This document shows positions 6,058 to 40,530 of a stretch of 42,132 nt of DNA, piece after piece. A program made the position numbers and the translations under genes. Each line of letters begins with the position of its first letter. Position 1 is the first letter of the stretch. The stretch lies in the sequence record MN850608.1; one strand, given 5' to 3'. The DNA is from Escherichia phage megetsur. The notes under the pieces are model-generated. The model was given only the letters and a program-made list of their open reading frames with translations, made no database searches and had not been told where the DNA came from.

Positions 6058-7323
6058 GTGCTTGACAAGCTGTTGTTAACGGTGATGCGCGAGCGCGGGA
6101 AGTATAACTCCCTGCGACACGCCATCCCGGAAGATACCATGAGCCAGACCACGGGCTATATGCTGCGTGCTTACGGCTCATACTTTGACGCGTTCCCGGA
6201 CAGTGACTTCATTGACATTGAGACACTGGGTACGCACGTTCGTTTAAAGACAGGCAGCACGCCTGAACAGATGGCGGCCTTTGATTCCCTGTGTGCTCAG
6301 CTCAAAGAGTATCAGCCCACGAAGGAACAGAAGGAAGGCATCCTTGACCAGCTCGTAGAGTTGGACACCGCTGGCCGTGCGAACCTGCTGATGCAGAGGT
6401 ACGACAATGGTGAAGAACTGGATATTATCTATGAGCTTGGCCGTCTGGCTGAGGGCGCACGCCGCAGTCGGGGCCAATCATCAGTTACCGATTACGTCGA
6501 TGACGATGTGGTTGACATTATTAATCGCACTGATGATGACCAAGGTTTTAAGTTCGGTCTCATGTGTCTGCAAGATAGCGTACGCGTACTGCTTCCCGGC
6601 GACTCCGTTGCAATCGCTGCCCGACCTGACAGTGGGAAGACCAGCTTCATCGCGTTTAACCTTACGCGAATGGCGGCGACAGCGGCGAAGCTGTATCCGG
6701 GCAGACCAATCCTGTGGTTCAACAACGAAGGGCAGGGCATCAACATCATCCCGCGCATCTATCAGGCGGCGCTCAACTGTACGCTCCCGGAACTGAAAGA
6801 GCTGGGTGAGGACAGGAGCAAGCTGCACGCTGCGTATGCCAAGGCACTGGGTGCGCCAGCCAATGTGATTCGTGTGAAGGATATGCACGGCGCGACGCTG
6901 GCAAAAGCTGAGCAGGTTATCGAAGCGATGAACCCGTGCATCGTGGTGTGGGATATGCTTGCCAACTTCAAGCTGTCTGTGTCTGACCCGTCGAGCAACA
7001 AGGCGAGTCAGGTTGAGCAGCTATGGCAGGAGGTACGTGAGCTGGCAGTGCGACACAACTTCGTGTCACTGGCTACGGTTCAGGTATCAGCCGATGGTGC
7101 CGACGATATGTTCCCGGCGCTTGACGCATTGAAGGATTCCAAGACTGGTATCCAAGGGGCGACTGATGTTATCGTGATGCTCGGCAGCGTGGATGACCCA
7201 TCGCTGGCGGCGCGGCGCGGTGTCAGTACGCCGAAGAACAAACGCCAGATTGCTGGGCGTCCAAGCAACGTGCGGTCACAGGTACACTTCTTTGCTGACC
7301 GCTGCCAATATGAGGATATGTAA
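6058..7323 (+). CDS. replicative DNA helicase (DnaB / T7 gp4 helicase-domain family)
   Basis: Walker A AARPDSGKTSF; 421 aa; GTG start with AGGAGAG upstream. Confidence 0.8.
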   Translation: MLDKLLLTVMRERGKYNSLRHAIPEDTMSQTTGYMLRAYGSYFDAFPDSDFIDIETLGTHVRLKTGSTPEQMAAFDSLCAQLKEYQPTKEQKEGILDQLVELDTAGRANLLMQRYDNGEELDIIYELGRLAEGARRSRGQSSVTDYVDDDVVDIINRTDDDQGFKFGLMCLQDSVRVLLPGDSVAIAARPDSGKTSFIAFNLTRMAATAAKLYPGRPILWFNNEGQGINIIPRIYQAALNCTLPELKELGEDRSKLHAAYAKALGAPANVIRVKDMHGATLAKAEQVIEAMNPCIVVWDMLANFKLSVSDPSSNKASQVEQLWQEVRELAVRHNFVSLATVQVSADGADDMFPALDALKDSKTGIQGATDVIVMLGSVDDPSLAARRGVSTPKNKRQIAGRPSNVRSQVHFFADRCQYEDM

Positions 7324-16395: not shown

Positions 16396-18828
16396 GTGGA
16401 TTTACTTGCAGAGCAGATTCGACTTGAAGAAGAAGCGCGAGCCAGACACCGCGAGGGCTGGCTGGATAATATCAAAGAGGCGATGGCCAGTGGCCGCGCC
16501 GGGTCGGTGCCGTTGCTCCAGCGTATGATGGTTGAGGCTTATCCTCTGGTCGAAGCTGCGATGCAAGAAACCCTGAGCGAAACGACCCGTGGATATGGTG
16601 CGCAGTACCGGACGTACATGCGTGAGATTGGCACCAAAGCGTGTGCCTCTCTCGCACTGAGCATGGCGGTGTCCGGTGCTGCGTCGGAGCAGGCGGTACT
16701 GAGTCTGCTCAAGAGCATGGGCAAGGCACTGATGGCTGAGGTGGTGTATCTCCGGGCGAAGCAGACCGGGCCACAGCAGGCGGCGTACATGGAGCGCGTT
16801 AAGCAGGACGTGAAGAAGTCTCGCTCGAAGTCAGCGAACCACGTCTACAACAAAGCGCGTGCGTCGGCGGCGAACGTTGGGGTAGAGATTGATGTGCTGC
16901 CGCAGCGTGCGCTGATTACCATTGGCAAGCTGATGATGAAGTGCGTCGAGCCAACTGGTCTGGTGTCCACGATTCGCGTCGGCGGCAACCAGCGCCAGCG
17001 CGGTACGGCACACTTCGCACTGCACGAAGATGTGCTGGCTACGATGAACGACTGGCTGGACATGCCGCGTGCTGATGGCATGTGCTGCCCACCGCTGATT
17101 ATCCCACCGAAGCAGATTGCCCCGAACGGTCGCAGCGGTATGTGGCATTCCGATGGGCAGGCAGCGATGTACCGGGTCATGAGTCGCATGAACCACAAAG
17201 GGTATCGTGCATTGAACGTTGACCCGACCCCCGTTATAGAGCCGTGTATGATGCTCAGCAGCGTTCCGTACCGAGTTAACCCAATGGTACTGGAGTTCCT
17301 GCGAACGAACCGTACAGGCGTTATGGGGCTGCCTGTGCCACCCCGTGAGCCTACACTTCCGTTCACCATCCCCGCTGGTGTGAGCTTTGCACAGTACATC
17401 AGCAAGTTCCCACCAGAGATGCAGCAGCAGATGGATGCCGAAGCTCACGAGTACAAGGTGAAGACTCGCTTGTATTACAATGAGTTGCGTAAGTTCACGT
17501 CGCAGATGCTGGCGTTGAATGGTGCAGTCAAAGAGGCAGACAGGTATGCGCAGTACGATAGGATTTATCTCCCGACTTACGCCGATACGCGGGGCCGAAT
17601 TTATTATTCTTCGACCCTTAACCCTCAGTCTATCGACGCGGTGCGAGCGCTGCTTGAGCTTGCGGAACCAGTGGCTCTCGGAACTGAGGGGCTGTTCTGG
17701 CTCAAGGTTCATGTTGCGAATTGTTTCGGATATGACGCAACAGACTTCGACGACCGGGCGGCGTGGACGGACAAGACACTCCCCCGACTACGTGAGGCGT
17801 GCCGTCTTCCAGAGGCATTTGATTCGTTCTGGTCAGAAGCCGATAGCCCTATCAGCGCGTGGGCTGCCTCTGTTGAACTCATTCGCGCTATCGACTCAGG
17901 AAGTCCTGAGACTTATCCCTGCCGAGTGGTTACGCAATGGGACGCTACCTGTTCAGGATTACAGCACCTCAGTGCGATGCTACGAGATGAAGTTGGCGGT
18001 GCTGCTGTCAATCTTATCAATAGCGTGGGAAGAAAAGCAGACATATATCTCAAGACGGCAGCAGCGGCGATGCAGGCTCTTGAAGATAGTGAGGCGCAGT
18101 CACCGACGCAGATGGGTACGTGGCTTGTTTCAATCGGCATTGTCCGGGCGATGGCTAAGAAGCCAGTGATGACCTACGTGTACGGGGCAACCCGGCACGG
18201 TATGGTGGACTACTACTGCCTGTATCTGCGAGAGAACCGGGTCAAGCTGCCGGACGGCAAGAGCCTGCTGGAGTGTGCGCAGTTCATCGCAGAGTTCATG
18301 TGGAATGCAATCCCTCGCGTTGTGCCGAAGGCGGCAGAGCTGATGGCATGGTTGCAGGCTATCGCGGTTGAGGCGGCAGCCAACGGCGAGTACGTGGAAA
18401 TCATTGCACCATCAGGGTTGCGGGTGGTTAACCTGTATCAAGCCAGCAAGGAGACGATGCTCAACAACATCAACCTCATGGGTATCCACAGCATTAAGCT
18501 GCGCGAGTATCTGGACAAGCCGGACGGTAGGAAGTGTGCCGCTGCGATTGCTCCGAATTTCGTACACGCCATGGATGCCAGCCACATGATGAAGGTGTTG
18601 TGGGAGATGTGGAATAACGGGGTGTACATGGTGTCCATCCACGACTCGTTCGGGGTGGCGGCTGCACATGCCGGGTTACTCCACAAGGTCATTCGTGAAA
18701 AGTTCGTACAGATGTATGAGCAACATGACCCAATTCAACAACTTGCTGTACGATACAATGCTGTTGCACCTGAACGGGGCAATCTGGATATCCAGCTTGT
18801 GAAACAATCAAGCAAGTTTTTCTGCTGA
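16396..18828 (+). CDS. single-subunit DNA-dependent RNA polymerase (T7-type)
   Basis: DATCSGLQHLSAMLRDEVGGAAVNL and HDSFGV match T7 RNAP catalytic motifs; GTG start with AAGGAG upstream. Confidence 0.95.
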   Translation: MDLLAEQIRLEEEARARHREGWLDNIKEAMASGRAGSVPLLQRMMVEAYPLVEAAMQETLSETTRGYGAQYRTYMREIGTKACASLALSMAVSGAASEQAVLSLLKSMGKALMAEVVYLRAKQTGPQQAAYMERVKQDVKKSRSKSANHVYNKARASAANVGVEIDVLPQRALITIGKLMMKCVEPTGLVSTIRVGGNQRQRGTAHFALHEDVLATMNDWLDMPRADGMCCPPLIIPPKQIAPNGRSGMWHSDGQAAMYRVMSRMNHKGYRALNVDPTPVIEPCMMLSSVPYRVNPMVLEFLRTNRTGVMGLPVPPREPTLPFTIPAGVSFAQYISKFPPEMQQQMDAEAHEYKVKTRLYYNELRKFTSQMLALNGAVKEADRYAQYDRIYLPTYADTRGRIYYSSTLNPQSIDAVRALLELAEPVALGTEGLFWLKVHVANCFGYDATDFDDRAAWTDKTLPRLREACRLPEAFDSFWSEADSPISAWAASVELIRAIDSGSPETYPCRVVTQWDATCSGLQHLSAMLRDEVGGAAVNLINSVGRKADIYLKTAAAAMQALEDSEAQSPTQMGTWLVSIGIVRAMAKKPVMTYVYGATRHGMVDYYCLYLRENRVKLPDGKSLLECAQFIAEFMWNAIPRVVPKAAELMAWLQAIAVEAAANGEYVEIIAPSGLRVVNLYQASKETMLNNINLMGIHSIKLREYLDKPDGRKCAAAIAPNFVHAMDASHMMKVLWEMWNNGVYMVSIHDSFGVAAAHAGLLHKVIREKFVQMYEQHDPIQQLAVRYNAVAPERGNLDIQLVKQSSKFFC

Positions 18829-35909: not shown

Positions 35910-37669
35910 TGGATTTACAACGCCGCATGGTGATGGCAGGAATCGTTCGCGCTCACTACGAGAACAACTTCCCGCTATTCCTGCATGACTACTTCGCATG
36001 GCTGGGCTTTGACCTCACTGAAATGCAGCTCGACATTGGCCGCTACATGGCCGACAGGACGCTCAAGAACAAGTGCGTCATGGCGCAGCGTGGTGAGGCA
36101 AAGTCCACCATCGGTATTGCTCGCGCTCTGTACGAATTTGTGCAGATGCCGAACGCCACTGTCCTGCTTGTGTCCGGTTCCGACGACTATGCTGGTACGC
36201 TGTCGCACGCTATCGTGTCGGCTATCATGCAATGGGAACGTCTGGAATGGCTTAAGCCAGAGACTCGCGCTGGCGCACGTACGTCATTTACTGACGGCTT
36301 CGACGTGCATCACGCCTTCCGTATCCCTGACAAACAACCCTCTGTAAAAGCGGTCGGTATCTTCGGCCAGTTGCAGGGGAACCACGTATCGCTGTTGATT
36401 GCCGATGACGTGGAGACTACCAGTAACGGTAGCTCTCCTGCCAACCGCGCCCGTATCAACACCCTGACCAAAGAGTTCGCGGCTATCGCCAACGATGGTG
36501 CAGAGATTCTGTACCTCGGCACGCCACAGACTCAAGACTCCATCTACAACACGCTCCCACAGCGTGGCTTCGACGTTCGCATCTGGCCCGGTCGTTTCCC
36601 AACGGTTGAGGAAGAAGAACGCTACGGCGGCTGTCTGGCCCCGTGGATTAAGCAGAAGATGGAAGGCCACCCTGAGCTGCGTACCGGACACGGTATCCTT
36701 GGGAACCGTGGCGCACAGACTGACCCGCAACGCTACTCCGAAGAAAAGCAGTTGCAGAACGAACGAGACTACCAGCAGGCAGGCTTCCAGTTGCAGTTCA
36801 TGCTGGATACGTCGCTGTCGGATGCGCTCAAACAAACGTTACATCTCAAAGACTTAATCTTCTTCCACGGCTCAACGCAGTCTGCGCCGGAGGTTCTGCA
36901 TTGGTCGAACCACCCGCGCCATGCCGCCGAGCTGCCACTGGATTTCCCACTGGCTCGTGCTCAGCTATTCTTGGCTGCTGATTTCTCGGACACTTATGTA
37001 CCATTCGAAAATACCTCGGCGTTTCTTGACCCTGCTGGTGGTGGGTCGGACGAATCAGTTATCATTGCCACCGCTTCTGTCGGCCCGTTTATCCACGTCA
37101 TCGGTATGCACGTCTACCACGGCGGCCAGACGGAGGAAAACATCAAGGCGGCGGTAGAGTGGCTCGCTGAAACCGGGGTTAAACGGCTGGTCATTGAGGA
37201 TAACATGGGCCACGGCACCGTGACCAACATGTACCGAGGTGAGATTAAGCGCCAGAGCTTGACGATTGGCTGTGAAGGCGTGTATTCGTCCGGCCAGAAA
37301 GAGGTGCGTATCATCAACCGCCTTGGCCCAATCATGCAGCGCCACCGTGTAGTTGTACACTGGTGCGTTGTTGAAGAAGACCTGCGGCTGTGTCGCGGGA
37401 TGAACAACGGTGGTCGAGAGTTCAGCCTGTTCTGGCAGCTCCAGAACCTGACACAAGACCGTCAATCCATCCCACACGATGACCGTATCGAAACCCTATC
37501 TGCTGCCGTGTACCTGCACGCCGAGGTGCTACAGCAGGACGAACATGAAGAAGCTGCCAAGCGCGAGACGGCTGCCGCACGCGAGTTCCTTGCCAACCCT
37601 ATGGGTTACGATGACTCGAAGTGGCGTAGCCATAAACCTGTGCGCGGCACGCGACGGAGAATCAAATAA
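35909..37669 (+). CDS. terminase large subunit
   Basis: 586 aa, same length class as T7 gp19; P-loop-like RGEAKST near the N-terminus. Confidence 0.8.
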   Translation: MDLQRRMVMAGIVRAHYENNFPLFLHDYFAWLGFDLTEMQLDIGRYMADRTLKNKCVMAQRGEAKSTIGIARALYEFVQMPNATVLLVSGSDDYAGTLSHAIVSAIMQWERLEWLKPETRAGARTSFTDGFDVHHAFRIPDKQPSVKAVGIFGQLQGNHVSLLIADDVETTSNGSSPANRARINTLTKEFAAIANDGAEILYLGTPQTQDSIYNTLPQRGFDVRIWPGRFPTVEEEERYGGCLAPWIKQKMEGHPELRTGHGILGNRGAQTDPQRYSEEKQLQNERDYQQAGFQLQFMLDTSLSDALKQTLHLKDLIFFHGSTQSAPEVLHWSNHPRHAAELPLDFPLARAQLFLAADFSDTYVPFENTSAFLDPAGGGSDESVIIATASVGPFIHVIGMHVYHGGQTEENIKAAVEWLAETGVKRLVIEDNMGHGTVTNMYRGEIKRQSLTIGCEGVYSSGQKEVRIINRLGPIMQRHRVVVHWCVVEEDLRLCRGMNNGGREFSLFWQLQNLTQDRQSIPHDDRIETLSAAVYLHAEVLQQDEHEEAAKRETAAAREFLANPMGYDDSKWRSHKPVRGTRRRIK

Positions 37670-38349
37670 TGTCCATCATCACCATCACTGATGCACAGCG
37701 TTATGAGCTTGGCTATCGCTGCGGTATCGCAGCTAATGTGACTCAACGCTTTATCAATGATACCCGTATAGTGACGGCAGCTCAGGCTGCTGATATTGAA
37801 ACGGCTATCACCAATCTGGTGGCGGCACTTGAGGCGGCTGGCTATGCTGGTACGCCGGAAGGTTCCGCTCTGCTGGCTGACGGCGCTACTGTATCTGTGG
37901 TCAACTCCGCAGGTAACGATGCGCACAATGCCACAGCCAACGTTACTGGCACCACGCTGGATAACGTACAGCTCGTCCTGTCTACCGCAGCACTGGTAGA
38001 CCACACTGACTCAACTGAGATTCGTCGCTTCGACGGCTCTATCCTCGGCATCACCACTGCCACCGCCCGTGTAGCTGACGGCCTGCTGAGCAATGTGCGG
38101 CTCCCGGCTAACGCCGATGCAGTGCTTAACGGTTCGACTTACTCCATCCGTAACTCTGCTGGTGCTGACGCTCATAACGCCACTGCTCTCGTGGCAAGCA
38201 ACGGTGCCCTCACTGGCTTTAACCTCGCCGCTACTGTGGCCATGGTGGATAACGGTGATGCACTGGCTATCCCGGTAACTGGCACCTACGTGGATACTGT
38301 TACCTTCACTGTCGCTAGTGGTGTAATCACTGGCATCGCACTCTCTTAA
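37669..38349 (+). CDS. hypothetical Ser/Thr/Ala/Asn-rich protein with an internal ~50-aa tandem repeat
   Basis: Repeat units ...NSAGNDAHNATANVTG... and ...NSAGADAHNATALVAS...; TAATG overlap with the terminase stop. Confidence 0.5.
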   Translation: MSIITITDAQRYELGYRCGIAANVTQRFINDTRIVTAAQAADIETAITNLVAALEAAGYAGTPEGSALLADGATVSVVNSAGNDAHNATANVTGTTLDNVQLVLSTAALVDHTDSTEIRRFDGSILGITTATARVADGLLSNVRLPANADAVLNGSTYSIRNSAGADAHNATALVASNGALTGFNLAATVAMVDNGDALAIPVTGTYVDTVTFTVASGVITGIALS

Positions 38350-38360
38350 GGAGAATCTTT

Positions 38361-38555
38361 ATGGCACTTGTTGACTCTACCGCTGCTGAACGTGCGGAGT
38401 TCGTGGCAGCCTGCAATATGGCGGCCAAGTATCTGAACGTTTGGACGGAAGACTACTTCTTCGATACCACCAACACTGAGCTGGTGGTGTATTACCAAGA
38501 GTCCGTGACCCGTGTTCAAACGGCGCTCACTAACCTGACGAACGCCGCAGCGTAA
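38361..38555 (+). CDS. hypothetical protein (64 aa)
   Basis: ATG 38361 with AAGGAG upstream. Confidence 0.45.
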   Translation: MALVDSTAAERAEFVAACNMAAKYLNVWTEDYFFDTTNTELVVYYQESVTRVQTALTNLTNAAA

Positions 38556-38565
38556 GGGGTATCTC

Positions 38566-39054
38566 ATGAAACTGTCTCGGCTAATGGCCGGGGCAGTCCT
38601 ATCAGCGTCGCTGACTCTGACGGGCTGCTCCGCAACTAGCGCACTGTCTGCTGTAACTTCGGCTGTATCTCCCAATAAGCCGGAACTGACGGCTCAGGTA
38701 GGTGCAGAAAATACGAAGCAAGGTATCGGTGTGACTGCGAAACAGTCCGATGAAACCGAAGTCGGTGACGTATCTGGCAACGCGAAAGTGGATACCGCTA
38801 AGCAGGGTTCGAATGGCACATCCATCAAGGACGTATCAGGAGGCTCTGTAAACGCTTCTAAGCAGGGGTCGCAAATGACCCAAGGAAACGTACAGGCTCG
38901 CACGGTTATCGTCTCTCAGAGCGACCCACGCAGCCTCCTATGGGCTTTCGGCATGGGCCTTACGTGTATCCTTGGTTTAGTCATGTGGTTTGTACCATCT
39001 CCGTGGAAAAGGAAAGTGAAAGATGACGGAAGCAAAGAAGGAGCCATCTCCTAA
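38566..39054 (+). CDS. lipoprotein with C-terminal transmembrane anchor; candidate unimolecular spanin
   Basis: Signal peptide MKLSRLMAGAVLSASLTLTG|C with lipobox LTGC; C-terminal hydrophobic LLWAFGMGLTCILGLVMWFV followed by KRKVK. Confidence 0.5.
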   Translation: MKLSRLMAGAVLSASLTLTGCSATSALSAVTSAVSPNKPELTAQVGAENTKQGIGVTAKQSDETEVGDVSGNAKVDTAKQGSNGTSIKDVSGGSVNASKQGSQMTQGNVQARTVIVSQSDPRSLLWAFGMGLTCILGLVMWFVPSPWKRKVKDDGSKEGAIS

Positions 39055-39406
39055 CATCCACTCGCGTATGGGTGCAGTGGAGGCTCGTATGCAGACCGTA
39101 GAACTTCGACTTGACAAGCACGAGGTACAAATCGCCACTCTTGAAAAGGGCGATGCTGCAATGATTTCCAAGCTGGCTGAGAACGACCTCCGCTGGCAGA
39201 CGGTTCAACAGCAGCTCCTTGTGGTTGAGCAAATTCAGGACATTCAAAAGACTATGAGCCATATCGGTAAGTTGTTTACGGCGGCGGCTCACGCTGTCAA
39301 ATGGTGTCTCTTAACTGCATCCCTGTGTAGCGGTATCTACTTAGCAATCAAGGCTGGTGACTTAAGCTCACTGCAAGCCTTCATCACTACACTACTGGGG
39401 ATGTAA
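39023..39406 (+). CDS. coiled-coil protein with C-terminal hydrophobic segment; possible holin or lysis accessory protein
   Basis: 127 aa; C-terminal AVKWCLLTASLCSGIYLAI; sits between the lipoprotein and the endolysin. Confidence 0.4.
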   Translation: MTEAKKEPSPNIHSRMGAVEARMQTVELRLDKHEVQIATLEKGDAAMISKLAENDLRWQTVQQQLLVVEQIQDIQKTMSHIGKLFTAAAHAVKWCLLTASLCSGIYLAIKAGDLSSLQAFITTLLGM

Positions 39407-39942
39407 TGACTAACTTTGAAATCTGTATGCGGTTCACCGGGCTGGCAGAAGGTGGTTACACCAAGCTGCCCGGCGATACCGGAGGGGAAACGAATCATGG
39501 AATTAGCGACGCTCGTGATGGCAAACTGGATGGCAGAGCTTGTGGTGTCCCTACTGGGCTTGGCGGTACTATTTGCGTGCCTATCAAAGCCCTCACCAAA
39601 GCACAAGCCGAAGCAATCTATCGACGGGATTACTACGCCCCCATCCGAGGTGACGAGCTTCACCCTGCGATTGCATGTGCCGTGTTTGACTACGGTGTCA
39701 ACTCCGGTGTCTCCCGTGCGGCGAAAGCTCTACAGCGGGTATGCGGCGTTGCACAAGACGGGATTGTTGGCCCTGCTACCGTGGCAGCAGCCAAACGTCT
39801 GGAACCTCACTCCGCAGCAGCAGCCATCTGTGACCTTCGTATTGCGTTCCTAAAGGCTTCTACAGCCCCGACAGTGGTTCGCTATAGGGATGCCTTGGTT
39901 GCTCGTGCAAAACGCTGTAGCGCTTACTGTGCGACGCTGTAG
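39406..39942 (+). CDS. endolysin, glycoside hydrolase family 108-like catalytic domain with C-terminal peptidoglycan-binding domain
   Basis: LAEGGYTKLPGDTGGETNHGIS resembles the GH108 signature; C-terminal region resembles PG_binding_3; no N-terminal SAR/TM segment. Confidence 0.7.
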   Translation: MTNFEICMRFTGLAEGGYTKLPGDTGGETNHGISDARDGKLDGRACGVPTGLGGTICVPIKALTKAQAEAIYRRDYYAPIRGDELHPAIACAVFDYGVNSGVSRAAKALQRVCGVAQDGIVGPATVAAAKRLEPHSAAAAICDLRIAFLKASTAPTVVRYRDALVARAKRCSAYCATL

Positions 39943-40059
39943 GGGTATCCAAAAGCTGACGCAATGAACAGGCCGTGGGTGCAATACCCCGGCTTGAAAA
40001 TTGCACGTTTATGCTTGCCCCTCCCTCGACCCAAATGACCGCGCGTGCCCCCATAGCGT

Positions 40060-40530
40060 GTGCGCGGATTAGCCTCGCGACGTGCGCGATATTTGCTCGC
40101 GTGCGCTGCGCGGCGCGTCAAGAGGATTGCCTGCGTGCGGTATAGCTCGTGCGTGTCGCGTTTCATCGTCTGCCGTGTGGCGTGCTGTGCGCTGTCCTGC
40201 TGGCTGTGCTGTGCGGTGCTGTCCTATGGGGACGCTCTGCGCTGGCTGTGCGGTGCTGCGTGCTGCGCTCGGTCGGGCGGGTATCTGTCTCTTTTGCTCG
40301 CAAGCTCTGCGCCGTGGTGGTGCTGTGTGGTGGCGGTGGTGCTGCCGTGGTGCTGTCCTGTCTGCTGGCCTACTGTCTGCGCCGCCAGCTCTGCGCGTCA
40401 TGCTCTGCTACTGTGTCACCTGTCCTACTGCGTTCACTGGCTGCCGCCTGTCATCCTGTCGGATTCCATCCGTTGCCGTTCCGCGCTCGCTTGTTTCGGC
40501 TGCGCCGCGCTCGCTCTGCGTATCTAGCGA
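40060..40530 (+). repeat. strand-skewed G/T-rich low-complexity tract (A-poor on + strand)
   Basis: Reiterated GCTGTG, GTGGTG, CTGCGC units; three + frames and one - frame stay open, which is composition-driven and not coding. Confidence 0.7.

Follow-up and report, generated by a model that had tools for sequence, protein, structure and literature searches.

The 42,132-nucleotide window analyzed here, one strand of the genome of Escherichia phage megetsur (MN850608.1), comes from a Bonnellvirus phage of the Autographiviridae with a GC content of 55.8%, and its endolysin gene carries within it a second open reading frame (ORF) at 39497–39853, in the +1 frame, which is probably a genuine protein-coding gene that was overprinted in an ancestor of the Bonnellvirus/Waewaevirus-like Autographiviridae. 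Selection maintains this ORF, its start signals, and its hydrophobic segment; the ORF is intact in two dozen diverged relatives and is therefore very probably real, and a real, selected gene for a membrane protein is likely. An earlier note on this DNA had described an ATG at 39497 opening a frame that runs to 39853, out of frame within the endolysin gene and preceded by GGAGGGG with a 9-nucleotide spacer, and both the coordinates and the spacing were confirmed (GGAGGGG at 39481–39487, spacer at 39488–39496). The translation, which opens with the ATG at 39497–39499, begins MELATLVMANWMAELVVSLLGLAVLFACLSKPSPKHKPKQ, and the peptides predicted within the product include LYSGYAALHK and QSIDGITTPPSEVTSFTLR.

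The evidence that carries this reading comes from 24 distinct endolysin genes with 63–99% amino-acid identity, which include the Bonnellvirus representatives and deeper lineages drawn from IMG/VR (L018, L019, and L112–L114), a metagenome scan (L032), and a protein search with contigs (L196–L207). Lineage pairs with less than 85% identity differ at synonymous codons by 0.54 where the gene is unconstrained, close to the 0.61 that saturation would give, so that wobble positions are nearly independent between lineages. Conservation of the embedded frame in homologous endolysin genes, which the earlier note had named as a check, was found throughout, the +1 frame beginning at this site running without a stop through at least 83 codons in all 24 genes. 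Over ORF codons 1–83 of the 24 genes no +1 stop is observed where 65.5 are expected, and over codons 84–118 there are 8 against 32.8 expected, whereas the flanks carry normal numbers both upstream of the start (24 observed, 21.5 expected) and downstream of the ORF (45 observed, 34.0 expected); the depletion is thus bounded by the ORF. Taken lineage by lineage, the probability of an open frame is at most 0.056 in all cases and usually at most 0.01 (genome-codon resampling and within-gene synonymous permutation). Four deep lineages share an open +1 frame over 140 codons, the next longest joint run in ∼3,400 matched codons being 63, and in a scan of 15,536 windows (all genes, both alternative frames) the region ranks at the top with 1 stop against 25.9 expected in nine genomes, although the result for the endolysin ORF does not depend on that scan. 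Encoding the GGETNxG motif does not by itself produce the ORF: 80 distant GH108 genes share that motif, yet an ATG with 80 or more open codons behind it occurs in none of them, nor does any of them yield a hydrophobic +1 peptide.

The start signals are conserved through codon choice in the endolysin frame. The start site is ATG in 19 and TTG in 4 of the 24 genes (0.18–0.36 expected), and at these sites endolysin residue 31, which is His, Tyr, or Phe, is always encoded by a T-ending codon (CAT, TAT, or TTT), these being the rarer choice where CAC (0.69) and TAC (0.64) are preferred. The suspicion that GGAGGGG merely reflects the Gly codons of the GH108 motif holds for the amino acids, which are forced, but not for the codons, which are free to vary: GGAG lies 7–12 nucleotides 5' of the start in 21 of the 24 sequences against 0.21 expected. 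It arises from varied codon sets for Gly26-Gly27-Glu28 (GGA GGG GAA, GGA GGC GAR, GGT GGG GAG, GGC GGG GAG, GGT GGA GAA, and GGC GGA GAA), and the codon GGA, with 7% usage, is used at either Gly to make it. Local RNA structure is weaker near the start (−5.5 kcal/mol) than in the gene on average (−8.9 kcal/mol), and a GC-rich hairpin over endolysin codons 10–24 ends 4 nucleotides before this internal Shine–Dalgarno (SD)-like element. Synonymous resamples of the hairpin reach a minimum free energy of −14 ± 3 kcal/mol, whereas the native sequences lie at −22 to −28 kcal/mol (P ≤ 0.023 for 15 of the 24 lineages); the excess stability holds in most of the lineages with a 178-residue endolysin, and 86.6% of the hairpin's cells are paired compared with 25–47% in slid controls, with four pairs changing on both sides, as in the C-G pair that becomes U-A in L196. 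It is the only one of the conserved RNA structures considered that has some support, and it may serve either to uncover the SD or as the mark of a processing site.

The product, which measures 83–134 amino acids across phages, is predicted to begin with a transmembrane helix at residues 3–30. The Kyte–Doolittle (KD) maximum over 19 residues is 2.24 in this ORF (P = 0.008–0.015) and 1.8–2.7 in 17 of 24 lineages; about 15 of the 24 have P ≤ 0.03. The third-position T frequency is 0.50–0.68 in the 28 endolysin codons under the helix against 0.22–0.32 elsewhere in most lineages, and since the wobble position of frame 0 is the second position of the +1 codon, a T there gives Leu, Val, Phe, Ile, or Met; even the frame-0 replacements L52T and L52N leave Leu or Met in the +1 frame. 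The DNA of the helix core corresponds to a lineage-specific insertion of nine residues (VPTGLGGTI) in an endolysin loop relative to 7dnp_A, the nearest solved structure (E = 7e-24). The residues ahead of the hydrophobic core carry a net charge of 0 to −2 in all 24 lineages, and the 15 residues after it a net charge of +1 to +4, with an isoelectric point of 8.9–11.1; an acidic or neutral N-terminal flank combined with a basic C-terminal flank leads to a predicted topology with the N-terminus out and the C-terminus in. Apart from residues 3–30, the AlphaFold2 (AF2) model gives a weak, low-confidence helix at 75–87 and disorder in the remainder.

That second helix overlaps a conserved motif in the tail, which L198 and L207 carry in the variant form LYNG. 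A 16-mer in this stretch, AAAGCTCTACAGCGGG (39724–39739), reads as KALQR in frame 0 and as KLYSG in +1, occurs once in the genome, and is identical in 9 of 12 aligned sequences, namely those with AAA at Lys107, unlike L112–L114, which carry AAG there; its core, GCTCTACAGCGG, is identical in all 12 codon-aligned sequences despite the rare codons CTA (Leu) and CGG, and the +1 peptides of most other lineages show the same motif. The 16-mer was rejected as a phage promoter, as it does not resemble the annotated phage promoters of LIMEzero and has a single genomic copy. Compared with four deep lineages, synonymous conservation reaches z ∼ −5 under the helix (39526–39585, endolysin codons 41–60) and z −4.6 to −5.2 under the motif (39691–39750, endolysin codons 96–115), which makes these regions the two strongest of 3,249 windows, with a synonymous difference of 0.38 in constrained against 0.54 in unconstrained parts. 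This constraint is regional and not ORF-wide, the linker and the C-terminal tail being unconstrained, and in LIMEzero, L205, and L207 the ORF stops shortly past the motif (83–93 codons), so that the conserved unit consists of helix, linker, and motif. The features are collected in Table 1.

Table 1. Features of the lysis region in the window (pLDDT, predicted local distance difference test).
Feature	Position	Strand	Basis or remarks
Unimolecular spanin (u-spanin)	38566–39054		PHROG 1804, E = 6.9e-36
127-aa protein	39023–39406		PHROG 35530; between u-spanin and endolysin
GH108 endolysin, 178 aa	39406–39942	+	Frame 0; Pfam PF05838 (Glyco_hydro_108), E = 1.2e-21; PHROG 315, E = 4.6e-40
GC-rich RNA hairpin	39433–39477	+	Endolysin codons 10–24; ends 4 nt before internal SD
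Shine–Dalgarno-like GGAGGGG	39481–39487	+	GGAG kept across lineages
Embedded ORF, 118 aa	39497–39853	+	+1 frame relative to endolysin; TAA stop at 39851–39853
Predicted transmembrane helix	39503–39586	+	ORF residues 3–30; AF2 pLDDT 75–86 (single sequence)
Basic patch KPSPKHKPKQS	39587–39619	+	Sequence; net +3, after helix
Motif (K/R)LYSG(Y/P)AxL(H/L)(K/R)T	39725–39760	+	ORF residues 77–88; found in 24/24 lineages

The host gene, labeled endolysin in the annotations of relatives, encodes a soluble enzyme without a signal or signal-anchor-release (SAR) sequence, and the whole lysis region is 99.4% identical to that of Escherichia phage mellemsur. The u-spanins of J8-65 and LIMEzero belong to the T1 gp11 family, and these two are the only phages with a u-spanin of this type that have no pinholin/SAR system (Kongari et al., 2018, PMC6139136). 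A search of that study's supplements for a holin assigned to either phage gave none, published genome descriptions of such phages give the endolysin alone (Kc261, PMC8402661), and a holin is annotated in none of these phages. The start of the gene at 39023–39406 shares 32 nucleotides with the u-spanin gene, an overlap that is strongly constrained at synonymous sites (z ∼ −4.4), and its product is modeled as one long helix (residues 12–111) with a hydrophobic segment at the C-terminus; by position it is a holin candidate, yet it has no charged C-terminal tail. Scans of 38300–40400 for Rfam families, sigma-70 promoters, and terminators gave nothing relevant.

Judged in this genome alone, the embedded ORF is unremarkable and barely more than chance. 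The genes of this genome have a +1 stop density of 0.037 per codon, and in 49 genes eight +1 runs reach 129 codons or more without a stop, the embedded ORF being the third longest; the probability of an open frame over endolysin codons 31–148, given the amino-acid sequence and codon usage, is 0.035 (synonymous-codon resampling) and is driven mainly by two risky sites, Leu63-Thr64 and Val98-Asn99, while the gene-wide +1 stop deficit of the endolysin reaches only z = −1.9. Stops in close homologues, which the earlier note would have taken as grounds for dismissing the frame, were looked for, and the frame is open in all 14 Bonnellvirus genomes first compared. Control +1 runs (TerL, helicase, 30684, and others) are likewise stop-free within the genus, where the whole endolysin gene, including codons 150–178 outside the ORF, shows low synonymous divergence. 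Because other +1 runs survive equally well, close relatives are uninformative, and after the deeper lineages the within-genus verdict of an ordinary ORF was set aside as uninformative and not as negative; close relatives cannot tell real overlapping genes from chance, and here only near-saturated lineages could. The single-genome figures, the within-genus pattern, and a product that matches no family are what would be expected of a composition artifact, that is, of a 56% GC gene with few opportunities for +1 stops whose open frame survives through endolysin conservation, but this account is highly improbable given complete stop absence over 83 codons in 24 near-saturated lineages with normal flanks, a start codon and SD kept by non-preferred codons, the local enrichment of third-position T, the 80 GH108 controls that lack the ORF, and the outlying position against matched controls. 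Genome-wide off-frame stop avoidance was also rejected as the cause of the signal, being too small at ∼8% (453 stops observed against 492 expected in the +1 frame), as was a programmed frameshift out of the endolysin frame, for which the sequence has neither a slippery site nor an in-frame stop context.

The earlier note, pointing to a lipobox-like LFAC, had likened the product to an embedded outer-membrane spanin (o-spanin) or a small membrane protein. An o-spanin would be an Rz1-like lipoprotein processed at LFAC; this tetrapeptide fits a relaxed lipobox in the present genome and is followed by a Pro/Lys-rich stretch, and o-spanin genes embedded in the +1 frame have been described before (PMC6139136). 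The non-conserved Cys rules this identity out, leaving it a negligible probability: Cys28 is replaced in seven sequences, by Tyr in LF82-23 (96% nucleotide identity), L198, L199, L201, and L019 and by Phe in Lidtsur and L196. In addition, the N-terminus is acidic and has no basic n-region, and the ∼28 hydrophobic residues before the Cys are long for a lipoprotein signal peptide. The host gene is an endolysin, and since the cassette already encodes a u-spanin, no inner-membrane spanin (i-spanin) partner exists. Of the earlier proposal of a small membrane protein encoded out of frame in a lysis gene, the ORF, start, GGAG, and hydrophobic N-terminus have thus been retained, and the o-spanin and lipobox part was not borne out. 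It is very unlikely that what is constrained is the nucleic acid or translation, with an RNA structure or regulatory internal initiation modulating the endolysin and the +1 peptide being irrelevant. Such a constraint would suit the conserved hairpin directly upstream, the near-perfect nucleotide identity at the motif with its rare codons, and the regional distribution of synonymous constraint over a product mostly predicted to be disordered, but there is no Rfam match, and the RNAalifold consensus is weak (−31 kcal/mol over 303 nucleotides, with a covariation term of only −0.67), for which conserved RNA structure, long-range or local, was rejected as the source of the synonymous constraint. 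Neither the avoidance of stops over at least 83 codons nor the hydrophobic, T-rich wobble and the kept +1 Leu/Met are explained by RNA structure, and a purely regulatory ORF need not be so long. A real membrane protein with a job outside lysis, such as superinfection exclusion, host membrane modulation, or a virion or assembly factor, is unlikely but carries some weight, as the lysis role is one that we infer and as the protein at 39023–39406, with its C-terminal transmembrane domain (TMD), fills the position of the holin in KP34-like phages, whose cassettes run spanin–holin–endolysin (PMC4411677), so that a holin may not be missing. Against it, co-translation from the endolysin mRNA would tie dosage and timing to lysis, generic holin hallmarks are present (PMC4411677), and the membrane proteins known so far from genes embedded in lysis cassettes have been ones that act in lysis (PMC6139136).

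Several points weigh against a real gene or against a holin role for it. The P values presuppose codon-usage nulls, and the lineages behind them are not fully independent. The product has no family match in Pfam, PHROG, or NCBIfam, and protein searches (5.8 billion and 1.84 billion entries) returned only the same ORF as WP_048338823.1, an automatic "hypothetical protein" record that is its sole database trace, and a partial match of marginal significance to an unrelated protein of 941 amino acids (P0017, E = 1e-3); the ORF appears in none of the deposited phage annotations of the relatives. The start signals are not uniform, as L204 has Trp at residue 31 and no start there, with an ATG five codons downstream, four sequences have TTG in place of ATG, GGAG is missing in L019, L202, and L207, and its spacing to the ATG is long (11–12 nucleotides) in the Bonnellvirus group. 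The hydrophobic segment is weak in LIMEzero (KD 0.92), in L205 and L206 (1.2), and in L112–L114 and L203 (1.4), the Lys and Arg residues of the basic patch are largely forced by [K/Q/E]-Ala dipeptides in frame 0 and are therefore not counted as selection, and about two thirds of the product is of low complexity and without synonymous constraint. The second rank in the 15,536-window scan is held by a +1 window in the helicase gene (6392–6796 in 6058–7323), with 0 stops against 19.1 expected in six genomes including LIMEzero; its open run of 134 codons begins ..MVKNWILSMSLAVWL.. and contains hydrophobic stretches, and it is either another overlapping gene or a sign of a heavy statistical tail, most genomes being close relatives. 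Finally, the protein at 39023–39406 appears to be a rival or partner holin candidate, which makes the case for a holin role of the embedded product indirect.

If the embedded gene is real, a function as a holin, antiholin, or lysis-timing protein falls a little short of an even chance. An endolysin without a secretion signal needs a holin, and the combination of a soluble endolysin, no annotated holin, and holin hallmarks makes lysis timing the most likely role. These hallmarks are a small size, at least one predicted TMD, a basic hydrophilic C-terminus, and a position inside the endolysin gene, although no known holin sequence family was matched. The late polycistronic mRNA would be entered internally by ribosomes, which would use the SD-like GGAG and begin at the ATG of 39497; the upstream hairpin may help to expose the start site, and the N-terminal hydrophobic helix (approximately residues 3–30) would insert in the inner membrane as a single pass, with the short acidic N-terminus outside and the basic, Ser/Thr/Pro-rich, mostly disordered tail with its (K/R)LYSGPA motif in the cytoplasm. 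The product might then govern when lysis occurs, either by being the holin or by acting with the 39023–39406 protein as its partner or antiholin. The more specific proposal that the ORF is the missing canonical holin of phages of the Bonnellvirus/Waewaevirus type, born de novo inside the endolysin gene, and that its helix imposed the endolysin loop insertion, is possible but rather doubtful; if it were true, enzyme and gatekeeper would share nucleotides, one mRNA, and a fixed ratio, and this would be, to our knowledge, the first case of a holin gene within an endolysin gene in phages of Gram-negative bacteria.

The arrangement resembles that of Staphylococcus aureus phage 187, for which Loessner in 1999 reportedly described a holin-like gene, hol187, lying out of frame inside that phage's endolysin gene, shorter than the 39497–39853 ORF and said to encode two predicted TMDs. 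In both cases a small membrane-protein gene lies wholly inside the endolysin gene in another frame with its own start signals, in a phage otherwise without an obvious holin. The differences are a Gram-positive host and a CHAP/amidase-type endolysin there and a GH108 enzyme here, no sequence similarity, a single predicted TMD in the embedded ORF, and experimental support for hol187 where the ORF is known from its sequence. Rz1 within Rz of lambda and other embedded spanins are likewise +1 genes inside a gene of the lysis cassette, and their products, like the one here, are rich in Pro, Ser, and Lys and largely unstructured, which is expected of overprinted genes (PMC6139136). Rz1, however, is an outer-membrane lipoprotein with an invariant lipobox Cys whose host gene is the i-spanin, whereas here the Cys is variable, the host gene is the endolysin, and the megetsur cassette uses a T1 gp11-type u-spanin. 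The small holins and pinholins of KP34-like phages have ∼83 residues, one TMD, and a basic hydrophilic C-terminus (Eriksson et al., 2015, PMC4411677), and the likeness extends to an endolysin-adjacent position, a cassette that starts with a u-spanin, and a minimal conserved form of the embedded ORF of 83–93 amino acids. They are separate genes that work with SAR endolysins, in contrast to an embedded gene with a soluble endolysin and no sequence similarity to them, and hole formation by the embedded product is only putative. As in de novo overprinted genes (Rancurel et al., 2009, via PMC6139136; PMC8227390), the ORF is a clade-restricted orphan rich in disorder-promoting residues, with a widespread older GH108 frame that is synonymously constrained and a new frame confined to one clade, and stop avoidance, reduced synonymous change in the host frame, and conserved start signals of its own are all found; it differs in that constraint sits in two short modules and that the transmembrane module coincides with a loop insertion of the host protein.

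Other parts of the window show unusual coding patterns of their own. Leaving the lysis genes aside, synonymous sites are most strongly conserved at 36455–36515 in TerL (z −4.6 to −5.2 in comparison with four deep lineages), and the +1 frame from ∼36468–36518 is open for 109–129 codons in several lineages and broken in the L112 lineage. The RNA polymerase gene contains a 216-codon stop-free +1 run (17519–18166) that is also stop-free in forsur, ROV85, and LIMEzero and is interrupted by 8 stops in Lidtsur and J8-65, the polymerase allele of these two being divergent. The annotations of relatives place repeat regions or terminal repeats between the endolysin gene and the early genes, and there the + strand at 40100–40500 is nearly free of A (AT skew −0.6 to −0.8, GC 0.59–0.69), and this near absence leaves all three + frames without stops and produces three overlapping ORFs of 154–187 amino acids.

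Standard gene callers and all deposited annotations of these phages overlook the embedded gene. If it is real, codon optimization or recoding of the endolysin, whether for enzybiotics or in phage engineering, would silently destroy a second gene. It would also be a clean natural case of de novo gene birth by overprinting, with a visible trade-off between two frames in which a loop insertion of the enzyme is the transmembrane helix of the new protein. For the phages themselves, a real gene would add one more component to a lysis cassette described with the endolysin only (Kc261, PMC8402661), and it may explain how a soluble endolysin exits in phages in which Kongari et al. (2018, PMC6139136) saw no pinholin/SAR system.

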